Below are positions 3,097 through 16,970 of a stretch of DNA of 17,300 nt, in pieces. Within the stretch, counting starts at the first letter, position 1. Each line of letters opens with the position of its first letter. This DNA is from a virus (taxonomy: Duplodnaviria; Heunggongvirae; Uroviricota; Caudoviricetes): positions 1 through 17,300 of IMG/VR virus record IMGVR_UViG_2541047802_000012. The stretch is one strand, 5' to 3'. A model generated the notes under the pieces. That model was not told the DNA's origin. It did no database searches and worked only from the letters and a program-made list of their open reading frames with translations. The position numbers were made by a program, and so were the translations under genes.

Positions 3097-3398
3097 CGCT
3101 TCCGGGGATGCGTTTTCTGATGATGCTGGCGCTCAGGATGGGGCGCACATTGTCAGAGTTACGCCGGGAAATGTCCGCATCAGAAATCATGATGTGGGCA
3201 GAATTTGACAGGTTCAGCCCGCTGGGTGACGAGCGGGCTGATATCCGGGCTGCCCAGATAGTTTCTGCGGTTTACGGTGCGCAGGGTGTCAAAGTCCCAC
3301 TGAATGATGCGCTTCTTCAGTGGGAGAAGGAGCAGACAGAAGGCGTATCAGATCCATTTGCCGGACTGGAAAACGCGCTTTTAATAGTGTCTCAGTGA
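3093..3398 (+). CDS. T segment of the G-T frameshift fusion chaperone (expressed as 2725..3092 plus 3093..3398 after the -1 shift)
   Basis: -1 frame ORF with no independent Shine-Dalgarno. Motif EIMMWAEFDRFSPLGDERADIRAAQI resembles the T domain of lambda-type GT proteins. Conserved G/GT architecture upstream of the tape measure gene. Confidence 0.65.
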   Translation, partial: VALPGMRFLMMLALRMGRTLSELRREMSASEIMMWAEFDRFSPLGDERADIRAAQIVSAVYGAQGVKVPLNDALLQWEKEQTEGVSDPFAGLENALLIVSQ

Positions 3399-3407
3399 GT
3401 CAACATA

Positions 3408-3430
3408 ACCGCTTCGGCGGTTTTTTTTTC
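3408..3430 (+). terminator. intrinsic-terminator-like hairpin (ACCGC-TTCG-GCGGT) plus T9, immediately upstream of the tape measure gene
   Basis: 5-bp GC-rich stem with a TTCG tetraloop at 3408-3421, followed by nine T at 3421-3429; read directly. Confidence 0.55.
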
Positions 3431-3439
3431 GTCCGGAGA

Positions 3440-6400
3440 ATGAGTGTGGCGACATTACGTGAACTGATTATTAAAATCTCGGCAAATTCCCGGTCATTCC
3501 AGTCAGAGATCTCCCGGGCTTCGCGTATGGGGCAGGATTACTACCGTACCATGCAGAACGGAGGCCGGCAGTCCGCTGCTGCATCCCGTGAAATGCGGCG
3601 TGCACTGGCAGAAGTGACGGATCAGATAAATACAGCTAAATCTTCGGCACTGAATATGGCGGGGGCATTTGCCGGAGCTTTTGCTACCGGTCATCTTATT
3701 TCTCTCGCCGATGAGTGGAATTCAGTAAATGCCCGTCTGAAGCAGGCTTCACAGTCCAGTGATGATTTTCAGGTATCACAACGTGAATTAATGGCAATCA
3801 GCCAGAGAACGGGAACGGCGTTTTCTGATAACGCCAGCCTTTTTGCCCGCTCTGCAGCTTCCATGCGGGAGTATGGCTACAGTTCTGAGGAGGTACTGAA
3901 AGTCACCGAGGCGATCTCCACGGGCCTGAAATTATCCGGTGCCAGTACAGCAGAAGCCAGTTCGGTGATCACGCAGTTCAGTCAGGCACTGGCGCAGGGA
4001 GTGCTGCGCGGTGAAGAATTTAACTCTGTGAATGAGAACGGCGATCGTGTTATTCGTGCGCTGGCTGCGGGAATGGGTGTTACCCGTAAGGATCTGAAGG
4101 CCATGGCGGATAACGGAAAACTGACCGCCGATAAGGTTGTTCCTGCACTGATTAGTCAGCTTGGGGCGTTGCGTGATGAATATGCAGCAATGCCTGATAC
4201 TGTTTCATCCTCTGCAACCAAAGTTGAAAACGCCTTTATGGCCTGGGTTGGTGGTGCGAACGAGGCAAGCGGAGTGACAAAGACACTCACCGGGGTGTTG
4301 AATGGTGTTGCAGACAATATTGATACCGTGGCTGCTGCAGCTGGCGCACTGGTTGCCGTCGGGGTAGCCCGATATTTTGGCAATATGGCGTCGTCTGCTG
4401 GATCTGCAACTGCCGGATTAATTACTGCAGCCAGAAACGAAGTGGCTCTTGCTGAAGCGCAACTTCGGGGGACTCAGATAGCAACCGCCAGGGCGCGTGC
4501 GGCGGTTTATCGTGCGCAACAGGCGGTTGTTGCTGCTCGCGGTACCGAAAGGCAGGCCGCAGCAGAAGCGAAGCTGACAGCTGCCCAGGCGTCACTTACC
4601 CGTAATATTGCGGCCAGAACAGCGGCACAGACAACGCTGAATACTGTCACGTCAGTGGGGAGTCGTCTGTTAAGTGGTGCGCTGGGGTTGGTTGGTGGTG
4701 TGCCGGGACTCGTCATGCTGGGGGCGACGGCCTGGTACACGATGTATCAGAATCAGGAGCAGGCCAGAGAATCTGCACGCCAGTATGCCGCAACAATCGA
4801 CGAAATTCGCCAGAAAACGTCGGCAATGTCGCTTCCTGAAGCGTCAGATAATGAGGAAAAGACGCGGCAGGCACTTGATGAGCAAAACAGGTTAATTGAC
4901 GAGCAGAAAAGTAAGATTAAATCCTTACAGGAAAAAATTGCTGGCTATCAGTATGTGCTGGCAAACCCGGGCTGGACAACCGATAACGGTTTTATGATTA
5001 ACCACATGACGTCGGTAAAAACTGTCACAGAAGGGCTTGCAGAAGCAACAAATCAACTGGCAGTTGAACAGTCCCGTCTCACACAAATGCAGGGCAAAGC
5101 GCAATCCATTCAGGATGTGCTTGCCGGGTTGGAGGAGCGACGGGTGGCGTTGATCCGTCAACAGGCCGCTGAACAAAACAAAGCGTATCAGTCCCTGTTG
5201 ATCATGAATGGGCAGCATACCGAGTTTAATCGCCTTCTCGGGCTCGGTAATGAATTACTTCAGCAGCGACAGGGGCTGGTGAATGTACCGTTACGGCTAC
5301 CACAGGCAACCCTGGATGATAAACAGCAGACTGCACTGAATAACAGCGAGCGCGAACTGGCTCTGTCCCGCCTGAAGGGGGAGGCCCGTGAGCGTGCCCG
5401 CCTGGGTTATGCTGCGGATGATCTCGGCTTTGTGGGAGAGGCGTATCAGACAGCCAGACAGAATTATATCAATAACTCACTGGATGCCTGGCGAAATAAC
5501 CAGGCAAATAAACCCAAAGCGCATAAAAAGACCGAAGCGGAAAAAACAGAAGATATTTATAAACGGCTGATTAAACAGCAAAAAGAACAAATAGCACTGG
5601 CAGGGCAGAATACTGAACTGGCTAAGATGAAATATCAGGTCAGTCAGGGCGAATTATCAACCCTGTCAGAAGCGCAGAAAAAAACGCTTTTGCAGAATGC
5701 AGCACTCATCGACCAGAAAAAGATTCGTGAGCAGCTTGCTGCGTATGAGAGCAGTCTGGCGGACAGTAATGCCAGTGCCCGGGCATCTGACGAAGCGCAG
5801 TTGTTGGGATATGGTGAAGGCTCACGGATGCGTGAACGACTCCAGGAAATGTGGAGTATCCGGCAGGCGTTTGAGCAGAAAAATAACGAGCTGCTGAGAC
5901 AGTATCAGGCCGGAGAAATTGAAGAAGCCCTGTGGAAACAGGAGAAAGAACTGAATAAAAAATATCTGGAAGAGCGTCTCAGCGATCAGCAGGATTATTA
6001 TGCAAAGGCCGATGCTTTACGTAATAACTGGAATGCCGGACTCCAGGAGGGACTGACCAACTGGGCAGACAGTGCCACCGATTATGCTTCACAGGCGGCA
6101 GATGCTGTCGTTTCTACGATGGACGGGCTGGTATCAAATATTTCCGATGCACTGGCCGGGAATGTTGTGGACTGGAGGAACTGGGGGAGTTCAGTTCTCC
6201 GGGAAGTTTCAAAAATTCTGATGAATGCAGCCATTGTTAACGGACTGAAATCACTCTCCGGTGCCGGAGGGTGGCTTGGTACGGTCGGCGGATGGATTTC
6301 GGGGGCAGTGGCAAACGCAAAAGGTGGTGTTTACACATCGGCAAATCTGAGTGCTTACAGTAACACTATTGTGGATACACCGACGTATTTTGCTTTTGCG

Positions 6401-6673
6401 AAAGGTGCCGGGTTGATGGGCGAGGCCGGGCCTGAAGCAATCATGCCACTGACACGGGCAGCGGACGGCTCTCTTGGGGTCAGGGCCATTGGAAATGTGA
6501 ATGGTGGCGGTGGATTTGTTTATTCTCCCGTGTATCACATCAGCATTCAGAATCAAGGGAGCAATGGCGAGATAGATGCGCGCTCAGCCAGGGGACTGGT
6601 GGATCTGATCGACAGCAGGGTTGTGTCAATTATGCAGTCATCGCGTCGGGATGGAGGATTGTACAGTGCCTGA
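3440..6673 (+). CDS. tail tape measure protein (about 1077 aa)
   Basis: Very long Ala/Gln/Glu-rich helical ORF in the canonical position. The N-terminal ~250 aa matches the conserved tape-measure N-terminal domain pattern, and the C-terminal region (LRNNWNAGLQEGLTNWADSATD...RDGGLYSA) resembles the lambda H C-terminus as I recall it. Start set at ATG 3440 (GTG 3446 is an alternative) because the 3320 extension overlaps T and runs through the terminator hairpin. Confidence 0.85.
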   Translation: MSVATLRELIIKISANSRSFQSEISRASRMGQDYYRTMQNGGRQSAAASREMRRALAEVTDQINTAKSSALNMAGAFAGAFATGHLISLADEWNSVNARLKQASQSSDDFQVSQRELMAISQRTGTAFSDNASLFARSAASMREYGYSSEEVLKVTEAISTGLKLSGASTAEASSVITQFSQALAQGVLRGEEFNSVNENGDRVIRALAAGMGVTRKDLKAMADNGKLTADKVVPALISQLGALRDEYAAMPDTVSSSATKVENAFMAWVGGANEASGVTKTLTGVLNGVADNIDTVAAAAGALVAVGVARYFGNMASSAGSATAGLITAARNEVALAEAQLRGTQIATARARAAVYRAQQAVVAARGTERQAAAEAKLTAAQASLTRNIAARTAAQTTLNTVTSVGSRLLSGALGLVGGVPGLVMLGATAWYTMYQNQEQARESARQYAATIDEIRQKTSAMSLPEASDNEEKTRQALDEQNRLIDEQKSKIKSLQEKIAGYQYVLANPGWTTDNGFMINHMTSVKTVTEGLAEATNQLAVEQSRLTQMQGKAQSIQDVLAGLEERRVALIRQQAAEQNKAYQSLLIMNGQHTEFNRLLGLGNELLQQRQGLVNVPLRLPQATLDDKQQTALNNSERELALSRLKGEARERARLGYAADDLGFVGEAYQTARQNYINNSLDAWRNNQANKPKAHKKTEAEKTEDIYKRLIKQQKEQIALAGQNTELAKMKYQVSQGELSTLSEAQKKTLLQNAALIDQKKIREQLAAYESSLADSNASARASDEAQLLGYGEGSRMRERLQEMWSIRQAFEQKNNELLRQYQAGEIEEALWKQEKELNKKYLEERLSDQQDYYAKADALRNNWNAGLQEGLTNWADSATDYASQAADAVVSTMDGLVSNISDALAGNVVDWRNWGSSVLREVSKILMNAAIVNGLKSLSGAGGWLGTVGGWISGAVANAKGGVYTSANLSAYSNTIVDTPTYFAFAKGAGLMGEAGPEAIMPLTRAADGSLGVRAIGNVNGGGGFVYSPVYHISIQNQGSNGEIDARSARGLVDLIDSRVVSIMQSSRRDGGLYSA

Positions 6674-9058: not shown

Positions 9059-12000
9059 ATGGGTAAAGGCAGCAGTAAGGGGCATACTCCGCGCGAAGCG
9101 AAGGACAACCTGAAATCCACGCAGTTGCTGAGCGTGATAGACGCCATCAGTGAAGGGCCGATTGAAGGTCCGGTGGACGGATTAAAAAGTGTGCTGCTGA
9201 ACAGTACGCCAGTGCTGGACAGTGAGGGGAATACCAATATCTCCGGTGTCACGGTGGTTTTCCGGGCAGGTGAGCAGGAGCAGACACCGCCGGAGGGATT
9301 TGAATCCTCCGGCTCCGAGACGGTGCTGGGTACGGAAGTGAAGTACGACACGCCGATTACCCGGACCATCACGTCTGCAAACATCGACCGTCTGCGCTTT
9401 ACCTTCGGTGTGCAGGCACTGGTGGAAACCACCTCAAAGGGGGACCGGAATCCGTCGGAAGTCCGCCTGCTGGTTCAGATACAGCGTAATGGTGGCTGGG
9501 TGACGGAAAAAGACATCACCATTAAAGGCAAAACCACCTCACAGTATCTGGCATCGGTGGTGGTGGGTAACCTGCCGCCGCGCCCGTTCAATATCCGGAT
9601 GCGCAGGATGACGCCGGACAGCACCACAGACCAGCTGCAGAACAAAACGCTCTGGTCGTCATACACCGAAATCATCGATGTGAAACAGTGCTACCCGAAC
9701 ACGGCACTGGTCGGCGTACAGGTGGATTCGGAGCAGTTCGGCAGCCAGCAGGTGAGCCGTAATTATCATCTGCGCGGGCGTATTCTGCAGGTGCCGTCGA
9801 ACTATAACCCGCAGACGCGGCAATACAGCGGTATCTGGGACGGAACGTTTAAGCCGGCATACAGCAACAACATGGCCTGGTGTCTGTGGGATATGCTGAC
9901 CCACCCGCGCTACGGCATGGGGAAACGTCTTGGTGCGGCGGATGTGGACAAATGGGCGCTGTATGTCATCGGCCAGTACTGCGACCAGTCGGTGCCGGAC
10001 GGCTTTGGCGGCACGGAGCCGCGCATTACCTGTAATGCGTACCTGACCACACAGCGTAAGGCGTGGGATGTGCTCAGTGATTTCTGCTCGGCGATGCGCT
10101 GTATGCCGGTATGGAACGGGCAGACGCTGACGTTCGTGCAGGACCGACCATCAGATAAGGTGTGGACCTATAACCGCAGTAATGTGGTGATGCCGGATGA
10201 TGGCGCGCCGTTCCGCTACAGCTTCAGCGCCCTGAAAGACCGCCATAATGCCGTTGAGGTGAACTGGATTGACCCGGATAACGGCTGGGAGACGGCAACA
10301 GAGCTTGTGGAGGACACGCAGGCCATTGCCCGTTACGGTCGTAACGTCACGAAGATGGATGCTTTTGGCTGTACCAGCCGGGGGCAGGCACACCGCGCCG
10401 GGCTGTGGCTGATTAAAACAGAACTGCTGGAAACGCAGACCGTGGACTTCAGCGTGGGTGCCGAAGGGCTTCGCCATGTGCCGGGTGATGTTATTGAAAT
10501 CTGCGATGATGACTATGCGGGGATCAGCATCGGCGGGCGCGTGCTGGCTGTGAACAGCCAGACCCGGACGCTGACGCTCGACCGTGAAATCACGCTGCCA
10601 TCCTCCGGTACCACGCTGATAAGCCTGGTTGACGGTCAGGGTAATCCGGTCAGCGTGGAGGTCCAGTCCGTCACCGACGGCGTGAAGGTGAAAGTGAGCC
10701 GTGTTCCTGACGGCGTTGCTGAATACAGCGTGTGGGGGCTGAAGCTGCCGACGCTGCGCCAGCGCCTGTTCCGCTGCGTGAGTATCCGTGAGAACGACGA
10801 CGGCACGTATGCCATCACCGCCGTGCAGCATGTACCGGAAAAAGAGGCCATCGTGGATAACGGGGCGCACTTTGACGGCGACCAGAGCGGCACGGTGAAT
10901 GGTGTCACGCCGCCAGCGGTGCAGCACCTGACCGCCGAAGTCACCGCAGACAGCGGGGAATATCAGGTGCTGGCGCGCTGGGACACGCCGAAGGTGGTGA
11001 AGGGCGTGAGTTTCCTGCTTCGCCTGACCGTGGCAGCGGATGACGGCAGTGAGCTGCTGGTCAGCACGGCCCGGACGGCGGAAACCACATACCGCTTCAG
11101 GCAACTGGCGCTGGGGAACTACAGGCTGACAGTCCGGGCGGTAAATGCGTGGGGGCAGCAGGGCGATCCGGCGTCGGTATCGTTCCGGATTGCCGCACCG
11201 GCAGCACCGTCGAGGATTAAGCTGACGCCGGGCTATTTTCAGATAACCGCCACGCCGCATCTTGCGGTTTATGATCCGACGGTACAGTTTGAGTTCTGGT
11301 TCTCGGAAAAGCGGATTGCGGATATCAGGCAGGTTGAAACCACAGCCCGCTATCTTGGCACGGCGCTGTACTGGATAGCTGCCAGTATCAATATCAAGCC
11401 GGGCCATGATTATTATTTTTACGTTCGCAGTGTGAACACAGTCGGCAAATCGGCATTCATGGAGGCTGTCGGTCGGGCGAGCGATGATGCGGAAGGTTAC
11501 CTGGATTTTTTCAAAGGAGAAATCGGGAAAACACATCTGGCCCAGGAGCTGTGGACGCAGATTGATAACGGTCAGCTTGCGCCGGACCTGGCTGAAATCA
11601 GGACGTCCATTACGAATGTCAGCAATGAAATCACGCAGACCGTCAATAAAAAACTGGAAAATCAGAGTGCGGCAATCCAGCAGATACAGAAAGTTCAGGT
11701 TGATACAAATAATAACCTGAACAGCATGTGGGCTGTGAAGCTGCAGCAGATGCAGGACGGACGCCTTTATATCGCGGGTATTGGTGCCGGTATTGAGAAC
11801 ACCCCCGACGGTATGCAGAGTCAGGTGCTGCTGGCGGCAGACAGGATTGCGATGATTAATCCTGCGAATGGCAACACAAAGCCGATGTTTGTTGGGCAGG
11901 GCGATCAGATATTCATGAACGAAGTGTTCCTGAAATATCTGACGGCTCCCACCATTACCAGCGGCGGTAATCCTCCGGCATTTTCCCTGACACCGGACGG

Positions 12001-12538
12001 GCGGCTGACGGCGAAAAATGCCGATATCAGCGGTAACGTGAATGCGAACTCCGGGACGCTCAACAACGTCACGATTAACGAGAACTGCCGGGTTCTGGGA
12101 AAACTGTCCGCGAACCAGATTGAAGGCGATCTCGTTAAAACAGTGGGCAAAGCTTTCCCCCGGGACTCCCGTGCACCGGAACGGTGGCCATCAGGGACCA
12201 TTACCGTCAGGATTTATGACGATCAGCCGTTTGACCGGCAGATTGTTATTCCGGCGGTGGCATTCAGCGGCGCTAAACATGAGAAAGAGCATACTGATAT
12301 TTACTCCTCATGCCGTCTGATAGTGCGGAAAAACGGTGCTGAAATTTATAACCGTACCGCGCTGGATAATACGCTGATTTACAGTGGCGTTATTGATATG
12401 CCTGCCGGTCACGGTCACATGACACTGGAGTTTTCGGTGTCAGCATGGCTGGTAAATAACTGGTATCCCACAGCAAGTATCAGCGATTTGCTGGTTGTGG
12501 TGATGAAGAAAGCCACTGCAGGCATCACGATTAGCTGA
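9059..12538 (+). CDS. J: tail tip central fibre / host specificity protein J, with divergent C-terminal receptor-binding region
   Basis: From [54 protein letters not shown] onward it follows lambda gpJ closely for roughly 800 residues, including the FN3-like region ([27 protein letters not shown]). The last ~330 aa diverge. The ORF track's 9014 start is a GTG extension running through the hairpin. Confidence 0.9.
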
Positions 12539-12556: not shown

Positions 12557-12584
12557 GGGCGCCAGAAATGGCGCCTTTTTTATT
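12557..12584 (+). terminator. intrinsic terminator after J (palindromic stem GGCGCC-AGAAAT-GGCGCC then TTTTTTATT)
   Basis: Perfect 6-bp GC stem at 12558-12563 / 12570-12575 followed by a T-run at 12576-12584. Confidence 0.6.
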
Positions 12585-12605: not shown

Positions 12606-13205
12606 ATGCGTACATTATGTGCTGTTATTTTGTCCGCAGTAGTCTGGCAGGTCGCCGCTGCTACGCCAGCGAGTGCAGCAGAACATCAGTCCACGCTGAG
12701 CGCGGGGTATCTCCATGCCTCGACGAACGTTCCCGGTAGTGATGATCTGAACGGGATTAACGTGAAATACCGTTATGAGTTTACGGACATGCTGGGTGTT
12801 GTGACGTCATTCAGTTATGCCAATGCCAAAGATGAGCAAAAAACGCATTACAGCGATACCCGCTGGCATGAAGATTCAGTGCGTAACCGCTGGTTCAGCG
12901 TGATGGCGGGGCCGTCTGTGCGCGTGAATGAATGGTTCAGCGCGTATGCGATGGCGGGTATGGCTTACAGCCGTGTTTCGACTTTCTCCGGAGATTATAT
13001 CCGCGTAACTGACAACAAGGGGAAAACGCACGATGTGCTGACCGGAAGTGATGACGGTCGCCACAGCAACACGTCTCTGGCGTGGGGGGCTGGCGTGCAG
13101 TTTAACCCGACCGAATCCGTGGCCATTGACCTTGCTTATGAAGGTTCCGGCAGTGGCGACTGGCGCACTGACGGTTTCATCGTGGGTGTCGGTTATAAAT
13201 TCTGA
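12606..13205 (+). CDS. lom: Lom-like outer membrane beta-barrel protein (Ail/Lom/PagC family), with signal peptide
   Basis: N-terminal signal peptide MRTLCAVILSAVVWQVAAATPASA. The C-terminal IDLAYEGSGSGDWRTDGFIVGVGYKF is identical to the lambda Lom C-terminus as I recall it, and GINVKYRYE matches the Ail/Lom family. GAGAGG Shine-Dalgarno upstream of ATG 12606. Confidence 0.85.
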   Translation: MRTLCAVILSAVVWQVAAATPASAAEHQSTLSAGYLHASTNVPGSDDLNGINVKYRYEFTDMLGVVTSFSYANAKDEQKTHYSDTRWHEDSVRNRWFSVMAGPSVRVNEWFSAYAMAGMAYSRVSTFSGDYIRVTDNKGKTHDVLTGSDDGRHSNTSLAWGAGVQFNPTESVAIDLAYEGSGSGDWRTDGFIVGVGYKF

Positions 13206-13231: not shown

Positions 13232-13258
13232 AGCCCGCCGGTTCAGGCGGGCTTTTTT
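13232..13258 (+). terminator. intrinsic terminator after lom (AGCCCGCC-GGTTCA-GGCGGGCT then T6)
   Basis: 8-bp stem at 13232-13239 / 13246-13253 followed by TTTTTT; read directly. Confidence 0.65.
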
Positions 13259-13269
13259 GTGGAGTGGAT

Positions 13270-15648
13270 ATGGCAGCAGTAAAAATCTCAGGTGTGCTGA
13301 AAGATGGTGCGGGAAAACCAATACAGAACTGCACTATTCAACTGAAGGCAAAGCGTAACAGCACCACGGTACTGGTGAACACGGTGGCCTCTGAAAATCC
13401 GGATGAAGCCGGACGTTACAGCATGGATGTTGAGTATGGCCAGTACAGCGTCACCCTGCTGGTTGAAGGTTTTCCGCCTTCACATGCCGGGACCATTACC
13501 GTCTATGAAGGTTCCAGACCAGGTACGCTGAATGATTTTCTCGGTGCCATGACGGAAGATGATGTCATGCCGGAGGCATTGCGTCGTTTTGAGGCAATGG
13601 TGGAAGAAGTGGCACGCAACGCCGAAGCCGCCTCTCAGAGCGCAGCGGCGGCAAAGAAATCCGAAACTGCAGCGGCATCATCAAAGAACGCGGCGAAAAC
13701 CTCAGAAACGAATGCAGCTAATAGTGCACAGGCGGCAGCGACCTCAAAGACTGCATCGGCAAACTACGCGACAGCAGCCAAAAAATCAGAAACCAACGCG
13801 AAAAATAGCGAGACAGCCGCAAAGACGAGCGAAACCAACGCAAAGTCCAGCCAGACGGCAGCGAAGACCAGCGAAACGAATGCTAAAGCCAGTGAAACTG
13901 CAGCAAAAAACAGCCAGGTTTCAGCAGCCCAAAGCGAGAGTGCCGCTGCCGGTTCTGCGACTTCAGCTGCCGGATCAGCAACTGCTGCGGCTAACAGCCA
14001 GAAAGCTGCGAAGACGAGTGAAACTAACGCAAAGTCCAGCCAGACGGCAGCGAAGACCAGCGAAACGAATGCCAAAGCCAGTGAAACTGCGGCGAAAAGC
14101 AGTCAGGATGCAGCGGCCCAAAGCGAGAGTGCCGCAGCCAGTTCTGCAAGCGCGGCGGCTGCTTCTGCTACTGCATCAGCTAACAGTCAAAAAGCAGCAA
14201 AAACCAGTGAAACTAACGCAAAGGCGAGCGAAACAAAAGCAGCAGCCAGCGAGACAGAAGCAACGTCAGCCGCAACAAGAGCAGAGAATGCAGCCCGGAT
14301 TGCAGAAGATGCCGCTGATCCTGCTTCTGTCCCTCCGCTTCCTGATATCTGGCTACCCTTGAATGATTCTCTGGAAGCGATAACAGGGTATGCGCCGGGG
14401 TATAAAACAATAACCATCGGCAGCGATGAAATCACTGTGCCAGTTAATGGCATATGCCAATTTAGCCGGGCTTCATCTGCAACGTATATTGATAAGTCCG
14501 GGCATATTACCGTGGCAGGTAATAACGTTCCTCGTTTTGAAAAATATGGTTTGCTGATAGAGAATCAGCGAACAAACATGTTCGTAAATAGTTTTAATCC
14601 TGATGCGTGGAATAAAAGCGGTGGTATATCTGTAACATCATCAACAGATGAATTTGAGTTTAAATATGGACGTTTCACGGTAGGAAGCGATATAGCAGGA
14701 ACGACAACAGGGAGAAATATATGCACAGTTGCTGGTAACAAAGGCATAGATGTGACTGGCGATGATCAGTACAGTAAAGGTCCGTATGTTACCGCGTCGT
14801 TCAGGGTAAGAAGTGATCTCAATGTTCGCGCACGTATCCGTTTTGAACGGTATAACTCGGAAGGATACACCTTCCTTTGCGACGCCTATTTGTCATTACA
14901 GACCCATGAACTACAAATTACTGGTGGCAATGCCCAGCTATTAACAGCAAACTTTGAAATCGACCCTGGTAGTGGATGGATATATTTTCAGGCAACACTG
15001 AAATGTCTGCCAGAATGGGGAATGGTTGGTACGCAGCTGCAAATTGCAGCCGACAGAGCTGTGGGAGCTTTTGCAACAGGTGACTGGATAGAAGTAACCA
15101 CCCCGCAATTCGAGTATGGTGCTTGTGCAACTTCCTTCATCATAACGACAACAGAGCCAGCGACTCGTGCATCAGATTTATGTAAATTTCCGCTGATGAA
15201 AAATATGTATACCATGCCTTTTACGTTCATGGTGGAAGTCCATAAAAACTGGTTTATTTCTCATAATGCTGCACCGCGTGTCATTGATTCAGAAAATCAC
15301 CAGTCCGGAGGCCCATTTATTATGGGGTTTGGTTCTTCTGGAACTATCAGTCAGGACGGTTATTCGTATTGCGATATAGGCGGGGCTAACCGACGTGTAT
15401 ATGAATCATGCGGAGTAAGGGATCTCGTTATGGGATTCAGGGTTAAGGCTGACGGCATGACATGCTCATTTGCAAATAAGCATATAAGCGCTGAAACAAA
15501 AACAGTATGGAAATATATTCGTGAAGCAGCCGTGATTCGTATCGGGGGGCAAACGACGACAGGATTACGACACCTTAATGGTCATATAAAAAACCTCCGT
15601 TTCTGGAACAGAGCATTGTCAGATACGCAGCTTAAGGAATACGTATAA
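13270..15648 (+). CDS. stf: side tail fibre protein, Stf-like: lambda-like N-terminal attachment domain, Ala/Ser/Thr-rich repeat shaft, lectin-like (ConA/LamG-type) C-terminal tip
   Basis: MAAVKISGVLKDGAGKPIQNCTIQLKAKRNSTTV...YSMDVEYGQYSV...GFPPSHAGTITVYE matches the lambda Stf N-terminus as I recall it, with GGAG 6 nt upstream of ATG 13270. The C-terminus ends ...GHIKNLRFWNRALSDTQLKEYV, which fits the characteristic terminal motif of LamG-like jelly-roll domains (G.IDEVRIYNRALS..EI). Confidence 0.85.
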   Translation: MAAVKISGVLKDGAGKPIQNCTIQLKAKRNSTTVLVNTVASENPDEAGRYSMDVEYGQYSVTLLVEGFPPSHAGTITVYEGSRPGTLNDFLGAMTEDDVMPEALRRFEAMVEEVARNAEAASQSAAAAKKSETAAASSKNAAKTSETNAANSAQAAATSKTASANYATAAKKSETNAKNSETAAKTSETNAKSSQTAAKTSETNAKASETAAKNSQVSAAQSESAAAGSATSAAGSATAAANSQKAAKTSETNAKSSQTAAKTSETNAKASETAAKSSQDAAAQSESAAASSASAAAASATASANSQKAAKTSETNAKASETKAAASETEATSAATRAENAARIAEDAADPASVPPLPDIWLPLNDSLEAITGYAPGYKTITIGSDEITVPVNGICQFSRASSATYIDKSGHITVAGNNVPRFEKYGLLIENQRTNMFVNSFNPDAWNKSGGISVTSSTDEFEFKYGRFTVGSDIAGTTTGRNICTVAGNKGIDVTGDDQYSKGPYVTASFRVRSDLNVRARIRFERYNSEGYTFLCDAYLSLQTHELQITGGNAQLLTANFEIDPGSGWIYFQATLKCLPEWGMVGTQLQIAADRAVGAFATGDWIEVTTPQFEYGACATSFIITTTEPATRASDLCKFPLMKNMYTMPFTFMVEVHKNWFISHNAAPRVIDSENHQSGGPFIMGFGSSGTISQDGYSYCDIGGANRRVYESCGVRDLVMGFRVKADGMTCSFANKHISAETKTVWKYIREAAVIRIGGQTTTGLRHLNGHIKNLRFWNRALSDTQLKEYV
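13650..14260 (+). repeat. in-frame tandem direct repeats inside stf (about 189-bp unit, two near-identical copies plus partial copies; encodes reiterated K-T/S-SETNAK-A/S-S-E/Q-T-AAK motifs)
   Basis: The string gcaaagtccagccagacggcagcgaagaccagcgaaacgaatgc recurs near 13840 and near 14029 (offset 189 bp) with flanking similarity; the protein shows the corresponding repeated motif. Confidence 0.7.
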
Positions 15649-15929: not shown

Positions 15930-16970
15930 ATGGTTACAAAAACAGTAATTCCTGATGACATCAAAACGCTAAAATCCGATGTTAGTAAACTAAAAACTGA
16001 TCAAGGAAGCTATGCAACAAAATCATATGTAGACAATAAAACAACATGGAATAGTTATTGCAATGTAATCTATGATCAAAAGGCATTGCCGACCACTGGA
16101 ACTATATTTAGCGGTAAGATTCACTTGTCAAATAAGACAGGAGAAACCGAAAACGCTTATAGTGAGATGTACACCAGAAAAAATATTGACGGTACAAAAG
16201 ATACAATGACAAGGATTGTCACACACAATGGAACAAAAGGTATCTTTTGGGATTTTAGCGATCTTTACGGCGGAACATTAATTTTTCCAGGCAGTGATGG
16301 TTACCTTAAGATGGGGAACTGTCTCATGTCGTATGGTGTGCGGGGAAGTAACGCGCTTATTAAGTTTGACTGCACAGACACATTACAAATCAAATATGCC
16401 AATCATGGGTCAACCATGACATTAAACACACAGGGAACCGCTTATGCTGGTGTTACTGCTCAATTGTGGGGCAACTCCAGCCGTCCTGTTGTTTATGAAG
16501 TCGGTGTTGATGGTGGCGCTTATATGTTCTATGCGCAGAAAAATACCGATAACACCTATATGTTAAGCGTTAATGGTGCATGTCATGCCACCGCATTTAA
16601 CCAGCATTCCGACCGGGATCTGAAAGACAACATTCAGGTGATCGATAATGCAACCGACCGCATCCGTAAAATGAACGGCTATACATACACGCTTAAAGAA
16701 AACGGTATGCCCTATGCTGGTGTCATTGCACAGGAAGCTCTGGAAGCAATCCCAGAAGTTGTAGGTTCCGCAATGAAATATCAGGACGGTGCAAGCGGAT
16801 CGGAAGGTGAAGAAGGTGAACGTTATTACACAGTAGATTATTCTGGTGTTACTGGCTTGCTTGTTCAGGTAGCCAGAGAGTCAGACGACAGAATAACAGC
16901 ACTGGAAGAAGAAAACGCAGAATTAAGACAAAGATTATCTGCAATTGAGGCGGCGCTTGCGTCTAAATAA
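15930..16970 (+). CDS. tail-fibre-like protein with C-terminal intramolecular chaperone / autoproteolysis domain (peptidase S74-type)
   Basis: GGAG 7 nt upstream of ATG 15930. The C-terminal ~120 aa (HSDRDLKDNIQVID...YTYTLKENG...AGVIAQEALEAIPEVV...YTVDYSGVTGLLVQ...ALEEENAELRQRL) matches the conserved S74 chaperone-of-endosialidase pattern, including the Ser-x4-Lys dyad spacing (Ser codon 16608-16610, Lys codon 16623-16625). Confidence 0.7.
   Translation: MVTKTVIPDDIKTLKSDVSKLKTDQGSYATKSYVDNKTTWNSYCNVIYDQKALPTTGTIFSGKIHLSNKTGETENAYSEMYTRKNIDGTKDTMTRIVTHNGTKGIFWDFSDLYGGTLIFPGSDGYLKMGNCLMSYGVRGSNALIKFDCTDTLQIKYANHGSTMTLNTQGTAYAGVTAQLWGNSSRPVVYEVGVDGGAYMFYAQKNTDNTYMLSVNGACHATAFNQHSDRDLKDNIQVIDNATDRIRKMNGYTYTLKENGMPYAGVIAQEALEAIPEVVGSAMKYQDGASGSEGEEGERYYTVDYSGVTGLLVQVARESDDRITALEEENAELRQRLSAIEAALASK

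Follow-up and report, generated by a model that had tools for sequence, protein, structure and literature searches.

A natural hybrid J protein in a lambdoid phage sequence, with a receptor-binding tip that most probably recognizes OmpC

The stretch of DNA analyzed here (the window; 17,300 nt) encodes a J protein that, judged by its sequence, is a natural hybrid, in which lambda-type residues 1 to ~810 are joined to the shaft, prism, and receptor-binding domain (RBD) of an O157/EHEC lambdoid prophage lineage (VT1-Sakai/Sp15 type). By analogy with a near-identical tip of published specificity, we suggest that the receptor of the window tip is most probably OmpC, with a dependence on the ompC allele, and not LamB. 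Three observations carry this reading, namely, the mosaic map of the gene, its domain content, and the near-identity of its end to the tip of the engineered gpJ chimera 1A2, and the OmpC dependence of the 1A2 tip is taken from the literature. Taken as a whole (a mosaic J, a tip docking on OmpC rather than LamB, and lambda-like triggering), we regard this explanation as highly likely.

Gene J is an intact open reading frame (ORF) of 1,159 aa that starts at GTG 9014 in the ORF list or at ATG 9059, the lambda-equivalent start, and stops at 12538. Its Pfam matches (FNIII-A_GpJ, Phage-tail_3, Ig_J, Ig_J_second, Phage_Tail_Tip, and Ig_GpJ_C; accessions in lambda order, PF24801, PF13550, PF24421, PF24489, PF09327, and PF12421) were all far over the cut-off, with E-values of 1e-32 to 1e-42, and make up a complete series of hub domains, two FNIII/Ig domains, tail-tip fiber, and C-terminal Ig-like RBD. 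The tail operon in the window runs from an HK97/lambda-type tape measure gene through M, L, K, I, J, lom, and stf to more fiber genes, and J sits after M-L-K-I and before lom/stf according to ORF order and the Lambda_tail_I, Ail_Lom, and phage_tail_N matches on its neighbors. The M-L-K-I-J-lom/stf order is identical in annotated relatives, and the window matches many Escherichia coli chromosomal prophages at ~97% nucleotide (nt) identity. As the domain series and the place in the tail operon both match, the gene product can be identified as a lambda J-type tip attachment protein. The features of the gene and its immediate surroundings are as follows.

9059..12538, plus strand: gene J (tip attachment/central tail fiber protein), an intact ORF of 1,159 aa, from the ORF list, translation, and Pfam.
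9059..11218, plus strand: lambda/phage 21-type N-terminal two-thirds (hub domains and most FNIII domains), from nt identity per bin.
11219..11488, plus strand: block conserved across the compared J lineages, at the end of FNIII-2, a probable recombination zone, from nt alignment and GC content.
11519..11737, plus strand: putative alpha-helical shaft of non-lambda type, residues 821 to 893, the AT-richest part of J, from amino acid (aa) identity.
11738..12103, plus strand: predicted beta-prism central straight fiber, residues 894 to 1015, with Pfam Phage_Tail_Tip at residues 872 to 1000.
12104..12535, plus strand: predicted Ig-like RBD of the Sp15/1A2 type, residues 1016 to 1159, with Ig_GpJ_C (PF12421) at residues 1029 to 1159 (E = 5e-37).
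12557..12576, plus strand: terminator-like hairpin with a T-run in the gap between J and lom, from a consensus scan.

In phage 21, a terminator is annotated at the position corresponding to the hairpin at 12557..12576. A second terminator-like hairpin with a T-run lies at 13232-13253, and the pair flanks lom (12606-13205; Ail/Lom family), an arrangement that fits a moron between J and stf with expression of its own. A 461-aa antisense ORF (10151-11536, minus strand) lies wholly within J and is most likely incidental, a consequence of the high GC content of the plus-strand coding sequence.

Aligned pairwise with lambda J (NC_001416 15505-18903), the window protein has 97.7% aa identity over residues 1 to 820, and from residue 821 (nt 11519) on it drops sharply, to an average of 47.8% over residues 821 to 1159 (nt 11519-12535; 339 aa). 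The first-pass annotation had stated that J tracks lambda J and then diverges over its last ~330 residues, and the alignment agrees: the C terminus is far from being as conserved as the rest of the protein. The start given there for the divergent part, 11480, was close, although the actual break lies 13 codons farther downstream. Within the divergent part, residues 821 to 893 have 20.5% identity to lambda, with a 28-aa insertion relative to it, residues 894 to 1015 have 72.1%, and residues 1016 to 1159 have 41.0%. An AT-richer patch had also been pointed out near the break and proposed as the recombination junction. The patch itself is real, as the GC content of 0.462 at 11480-11730 is the lowest of any 251-nt interval in the whole J gene, the first 2,160 nt of which (9059-11218) have a GC content of 0.599. 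Its reading as the crossover was rejected. The fall in GC begins at ~11219, inside a block still 89 to 97% identical to lambda; GC is 0.522 at 11219-11488 in the window and in lambda alike, and both parental types stay highly identical through that block. The AT-rich patch is therefore better read as the beginning of the imported cassette, that is, the start of the swapped helical shaft.

The origin of the two parts was mapped by a seven-way nt alignment of J from the window, lambda, phage 21, lambda h434, PhiR55_1, vB_EcoS-640R1, and VT1-Sakai, scored in 90-nt bins. Per bin, positions 9059 to 11218 are 92 to 100% identical to lambda and 90 to 99% identical to phage 21 but only 59 to 94% identical to VT1-Sakai. 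In the block from 11219 to 11488, lambda, phage 21, and VT1-Sakai are all 88 to 97% identical to the window. From 11489 to 12538, identity to the J gene carried by the O157 prophage VT1-Sakai (Sp15) is 91 to 100% (mostly 97 to 100%), and the sequence is, except for the core of the prism, poorly related to lambda. The simplest reading of this pattern, and a probable one, is that a J of lambda type recombined with one of EHEC-prophage type inside 11219-11488. The shaft and prism are shared by phage 21, and likewise by many "Lambda_ev"/mEp-type phages, but a different RBD begins in them at ~12118-12158, which marks the RBD boundary as a second exchange point in the J family.

The modules of the divergent part are named here after the lambda J structure paper (PMC11101478), which describes an alpha-helical shaft, a beta-prism central straight fiber, and an Ig-like RBD with four receptor-contact loops. 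The shaft is 97% identical in amino acids to that of phage 21 and 100% identical to that of VT1-Sakai. Its 28-aa insertion amounts to four heptads, and the shaft is, by sequence length, longer than lambda's; the insertion was modelled as helical, at low confidence only (single-sequence model; pLDDT of 50 to 76 in the shaft). The prism is 96% identical to that of phage 21 and 99% identical to that of VT1-Sakai. The RBD is 99% identical to that of VT1-Sakai, and its identity is 65% with phage 21, 62% with A8 (PDB 9wca), 44% with 434, and 41% with lambda. By the PF12421 match at residues 1029 to 1159, the receptor-binding domain proper comprises only the last ~145 aa, and the remaining divergence belongs to the helical shaft and the beta-prism fiber. 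The single-sequence AlphaFold2 model of residues 805 to 1159 was poor (mean pLDDT of 38), and the Ig-like fold of the RBD is predicted instead from its sequence identity of 62% and 41% to two chains of known structure, 9wca and 8xcj, respectively. Differences of the RBD from A8, phage 21, and lambda fall into four patches that alternate with the conserved motifs FDRQIV, KNG, DMPAG, and SD..V.V.KK, and these four variable patches may correspond to the four contact loops.

A search of phage genomes with the RBD (tblastn) sorts J tips into classes. The class that is at least 91% identical to the window RBD holds VT1-Sakai, PPompW, several long-tailed Stx2a phages, JLK-2012, PhiR5_1, and vB_EcoS-783R2; phage 21, BP-4795, and Stx1a phages form a class at about 60 to 63%, lambda stands at about 41%, and 434, mEp460, and 2851 stand at about 40%. 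Over residues 1016 to 1159, the window RBD is thus not close in sequence to the LamB-binding tip of lambda. Among solved structures, the best match of J was "A8 gpJ 713" (PDB 9wca/9wcb; E = 1.7e-118). The long-tailed EHEC phage phi330, an OmpC user, was considered as a member of the same tip class and rejected, its RBD being of the WGPS6 type and about 40% identical. A 2026 receptor-prediction preprint was set aside as a guide, as it covers Drexlerviridae-type GpJ and not lambdoid tips.

The closest characterized relative of the window tip comes from phage engineering. Brödel et al. (Nature 2024, PMC11338833) fused natural E. coli J tips to lambda J at residue 964, yielding the chimeras A8 and 1A2, with the aim of retargeting particles from LamB to OmpC. 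The "GpJ 1A2" DNA in Supplementary file 1 of that paper is a scanned text with indel errors, and it was therefore compared with the window by frameshift-tolerant protein-to-DNA alignment. Native 17-mers and peptide strings from the window found no match in this supplement, where the 1A2 insert is recoded DNA. The 1A2 sequence reads as lambda up to ...NADISG (lambda residue 964) and as a natural variant thereafter, and over window residues 993 to 1159 (the last 167 aa) 153 of the 155 cleanly read codons match; the other 12 of the 167 carry scanning indels and were checked only as compatible with the window residue. One mismatch is I1052V, a position at which VT1-Sakai and vB_EcoS-640R1 carry V as well and PhiR55_1 carries I. 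The other, F1069L, looks like a scanning insertion and is probably a scanning error. By the sequence of the C-terminal module (from lambda residue 965 onward), the window tip can be assigned to the Sp15/1A2 type.

The receptor data for 1A2 come mainly from the same paper (PMC11338833), in whose source data the assay host is MG1655 delta-lamB delta-ompC carrying plasmid-borne ompC alleles. At the top multiplicity of infection (MOI), 1A2 particles delivered to at least 76% of cells on 20 of 23 natural OmpC alleles, and delivery was 2%, 1.5%, and 0.9% on alleles G1, G2, and G40; the figures for G1 are those given for MG1655 OmpC. Delivery of 1A2 into wild-type LamB+ MG1655 was 5.2% at an MOI of 50, and wild-type lambda particles reached 97.7% in LamB+ MG1655 at an MOI of 174. 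Of two OmpC variants characterized in detail, 1A2 was efficient on that of EDL933 only, whereas A8 took both (PMC11338833). 1A2 also serves as the OmpC-recognizing tip for O157 in the EB003 STEC preprint (bioRxiv 10.1101/2025.02.28.640725), and PDB 9wcb holds A8 gpJ and OmpC chains together, A8 having an RBD 62% identical to that of the window. By analogy with 1A2, the window tip should most likely accept most natural OmpC alleles, including that of EDL933, but not the K-12 allele, and we infer that the native protein in the window phage behaves as the 1A2 tip does. Two further suggestions of the first-pass annotation are strengthened by these results. That the receptor is probably not LamB is supported by the 41% RBD identity to lambda and by the OmpC dependence of the near-identical 1A2 tip, which hardly enters LamB+ MG1655; that the C-terminal specificity region had been swapped follows from the mosaic map, and the receptor can now be named as OmpC, used in an allele-dependent manner.

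Phage 21 cautions against arguing from divergence. Its native receptor is LamB, and I1025T, a single substitution next to the RBD, adds OmpC use (PMC11336670). As the phage 21 RBD is far from that of lambda and LamB is nonetheless its native receptor, divergence alone would be an unsafe basis for excluding LamB, and since its tip is 65% identical to that of the window and still uses LamB, receptor calls at about 60% identity are unsafe. The OmpC call for the window tip is accordingly drawn from near-identity to 1A2 and not from family resemblance. The same example lends some weight to the alternative that the window tip still uses LamB, as native phage 21 J is reported to do (PMC11336670), and that its divergence reflects a different binding mode on the same porin; the two J proteins share shaft and prism (96 to 97% aa identity) in addition to the 65% identical RBD. 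We consider this very unlikely, because the near-identical 1A2 tip barely enters LamB+ MG1655 (5.2% at an MOI of 50) and works in a delta-lamB background when given a suitable ompC allele, and because the patches in which the window differs from phage 21 include two insertions/deletions.

That a single phage 21 substitution alters receptor use (PMC11336670) also implies that small differences can matter, and the window tip differs from 1A2 in at least one residue (I1052 versus V). Another or an additional outer membrane protein (e.g., OmpF), or a shifted range of OmpC alleles, could be reached via I1052 or the longer native shaft; single substitutions near or in J tips widen receptor use in lambda and phage 21, and the allele ranges of A8 and 1A2 differ. 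We judge this unlikely, given that, among the readable positions of residues 993 to 1159, no more than one or two depart from 1A2 and that natural copies carry either residue at 1052 (I in PhiR55_1 and V in vB_EcoS-640R1). In its native context, with a shaft 28 aa longer and I1052, the tip might nevertheless have a receptor range or trigger threshold unlike that of 1A2 and extend, for example, to K-12 OmpC or a second porin. A joint reading, in which the conserved block at 11219-11488 is a preferred exchange point letting lambda-type tails gain whole shaft-prism-tip cassettes and/or the native tip differs from 1A2 in range or trigger threshold, has in our view a slim chance of being correct.

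On the preferred explanation, an OmpC-docking tip, we propose that the trimeric Ig-like tip would dock on the trimeric porin OmpC, with its distal loops reaching into the extracellular face. By analogy with lambda J-LamB and the A8-OmpC complex, binding would spread the three RBDs, and this spreading would be passed on as a twist of the beta prism and a flip of the helical shaft, leaving the tail tip open for DNA to be ejected.

Full-length J genes 95 to 96% identical (nt) to that of the window occur in vB_EcoS-640R1, PhiR55_1, PhiR46_1, and prophage 500465-3; the recorded hosts of PhiR55_1 and PhiR46_1 are E. coli C and ECOR13, respectively, and PhiR55_1 has been reported as not needing ManYZ for infection (PMC13190303). 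The near-identical J of PhiR55_1, PhiR46_1, and vB_EcoS-640R1 means that the same mosaic occurs in deposited phage genomes. These copies also bear on whether the divergent end could be a decayed or nonfunctional remnant of a cryptic prophage. The VT1-Sakai copy of the same J type is indeed split by a frameshift, AP000400 (1500-4972) being annotated as two coding sequences (CDS) split by mutation, but the window copy is intact, all six of its J domains score far over the Pfam cut-offs, the neighboring tail genes, like lom/stf, are intact as well, and the full-length relatives come from deposited phages with named hosts; a remnant is therefore hardly credible.

The window contains other tail genes. 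The tape measure gene (3320-6673; 1,117 aa) encodes HK97-type and TMP_3 domains and a lambda-type C-terminal domain, and it is much longer than the H gene of lambda, which spans 2,562 nt. The stf gene (13264-15648) encodes a standard prophage tail-fiber N-terminal domain and, chiefly at 13789-14284, an Ala/Ser/Thr/Lys/Glu-rich region of 21-, 42-, and 189-nt tandem repeats (AAKTSETNAK... units), which produce an extreme AT skew of 0.5 to 0.6. A 346-aa ORF (15930-16970) that follows stf and a short ORF of 89 aa encodes a Peptidase_S74 intramolecular chaperone domain, and nowhere in the window is the AT content higher than in this region (GC of 0.35 to 0.39). The 346-aa ORF looks like a separately acquired fiber/spike tip module and may be a second host range determinant.

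The 1,020-nt C-terminal module was found, at a coverage of at least 80%, in 2,809 of 5,426 complete E. coli genomes, mostly at 90 to 99% identity. This tip type is thus very common, and engineered delivery particles already exploit it. Neither the J gene nor the role of its tip is new, and our result is a correct and useful annotation rather than a discovery: the receptor of a prophage can be named from sequence, here OmpC, in an allele-dependent manner and probably not in its K-12 form. In practice, this may serve host range prediction and the selection of indicator strains, for which K-12 would be a poor choice and strains with EDL933-like OmpC would be suitable. The gene also illustrates the exchange of shaft-prism-tip cassettes among lambdoid phages, with little significance past annotation.

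Compared with known systems, the nearest natural relatives of the cassette are VT1-Sakai (Sp15) and related EHEC lambdoid prophages (PPompW, several long-tailed Stx2a phages, and JLK-2012), whose shaft, prism, and RBD are 99 to 100% identical in amino acids and whose J genes differ from that of the window in the N-terminal two-thirds (only 59 to 94% nt identity per bin). J of phage 21 likewise has a lambda-type N terminus and the long shaft and prism (about 96 to 98% aa identity), its nt match persisting until ~12118-12158, but identity falls to 65% in the RBD, where the variable patches contain two insertions/deletions, and LamB is its native receptor (PMC11336670). Lambda J, a LamB binder (PDB 8IYK, 8XCJ, and 8XCK), shares the architecture and 97.7% identity over residues 1 to 820, and the triggering mechanism is presumably common to both proteins; it differs in its shaft (20% identity and 28 aa shorter), prism (72%), RBD (41%), and receptor. 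J of phage 434 (lambda h434), with OmpC as its reported receptor (PMC11101478), resembles the window J in its lambda-type N terminus but has a lambda-type shaft and prism and an RBD only 44% identical, by which it appears as an independent OmpC-binding tip class. The A8 gpJ-OmpC complex (PDB 9wca/9wcb) represents the same Ig-like tip family and binds OmpC, although A8, unlike 1A2, also accepts K-12 OmpC and its RBD is 62% identical to that of the window. The chimera 1A2 has the same distal prism and RBD (residues 993 to 1159) but is engineered and recoded, with the short shaft and most of the prism of lambda, whereas the window J carries this RBD on its native prism and its native, 28-aa-longer shaft.
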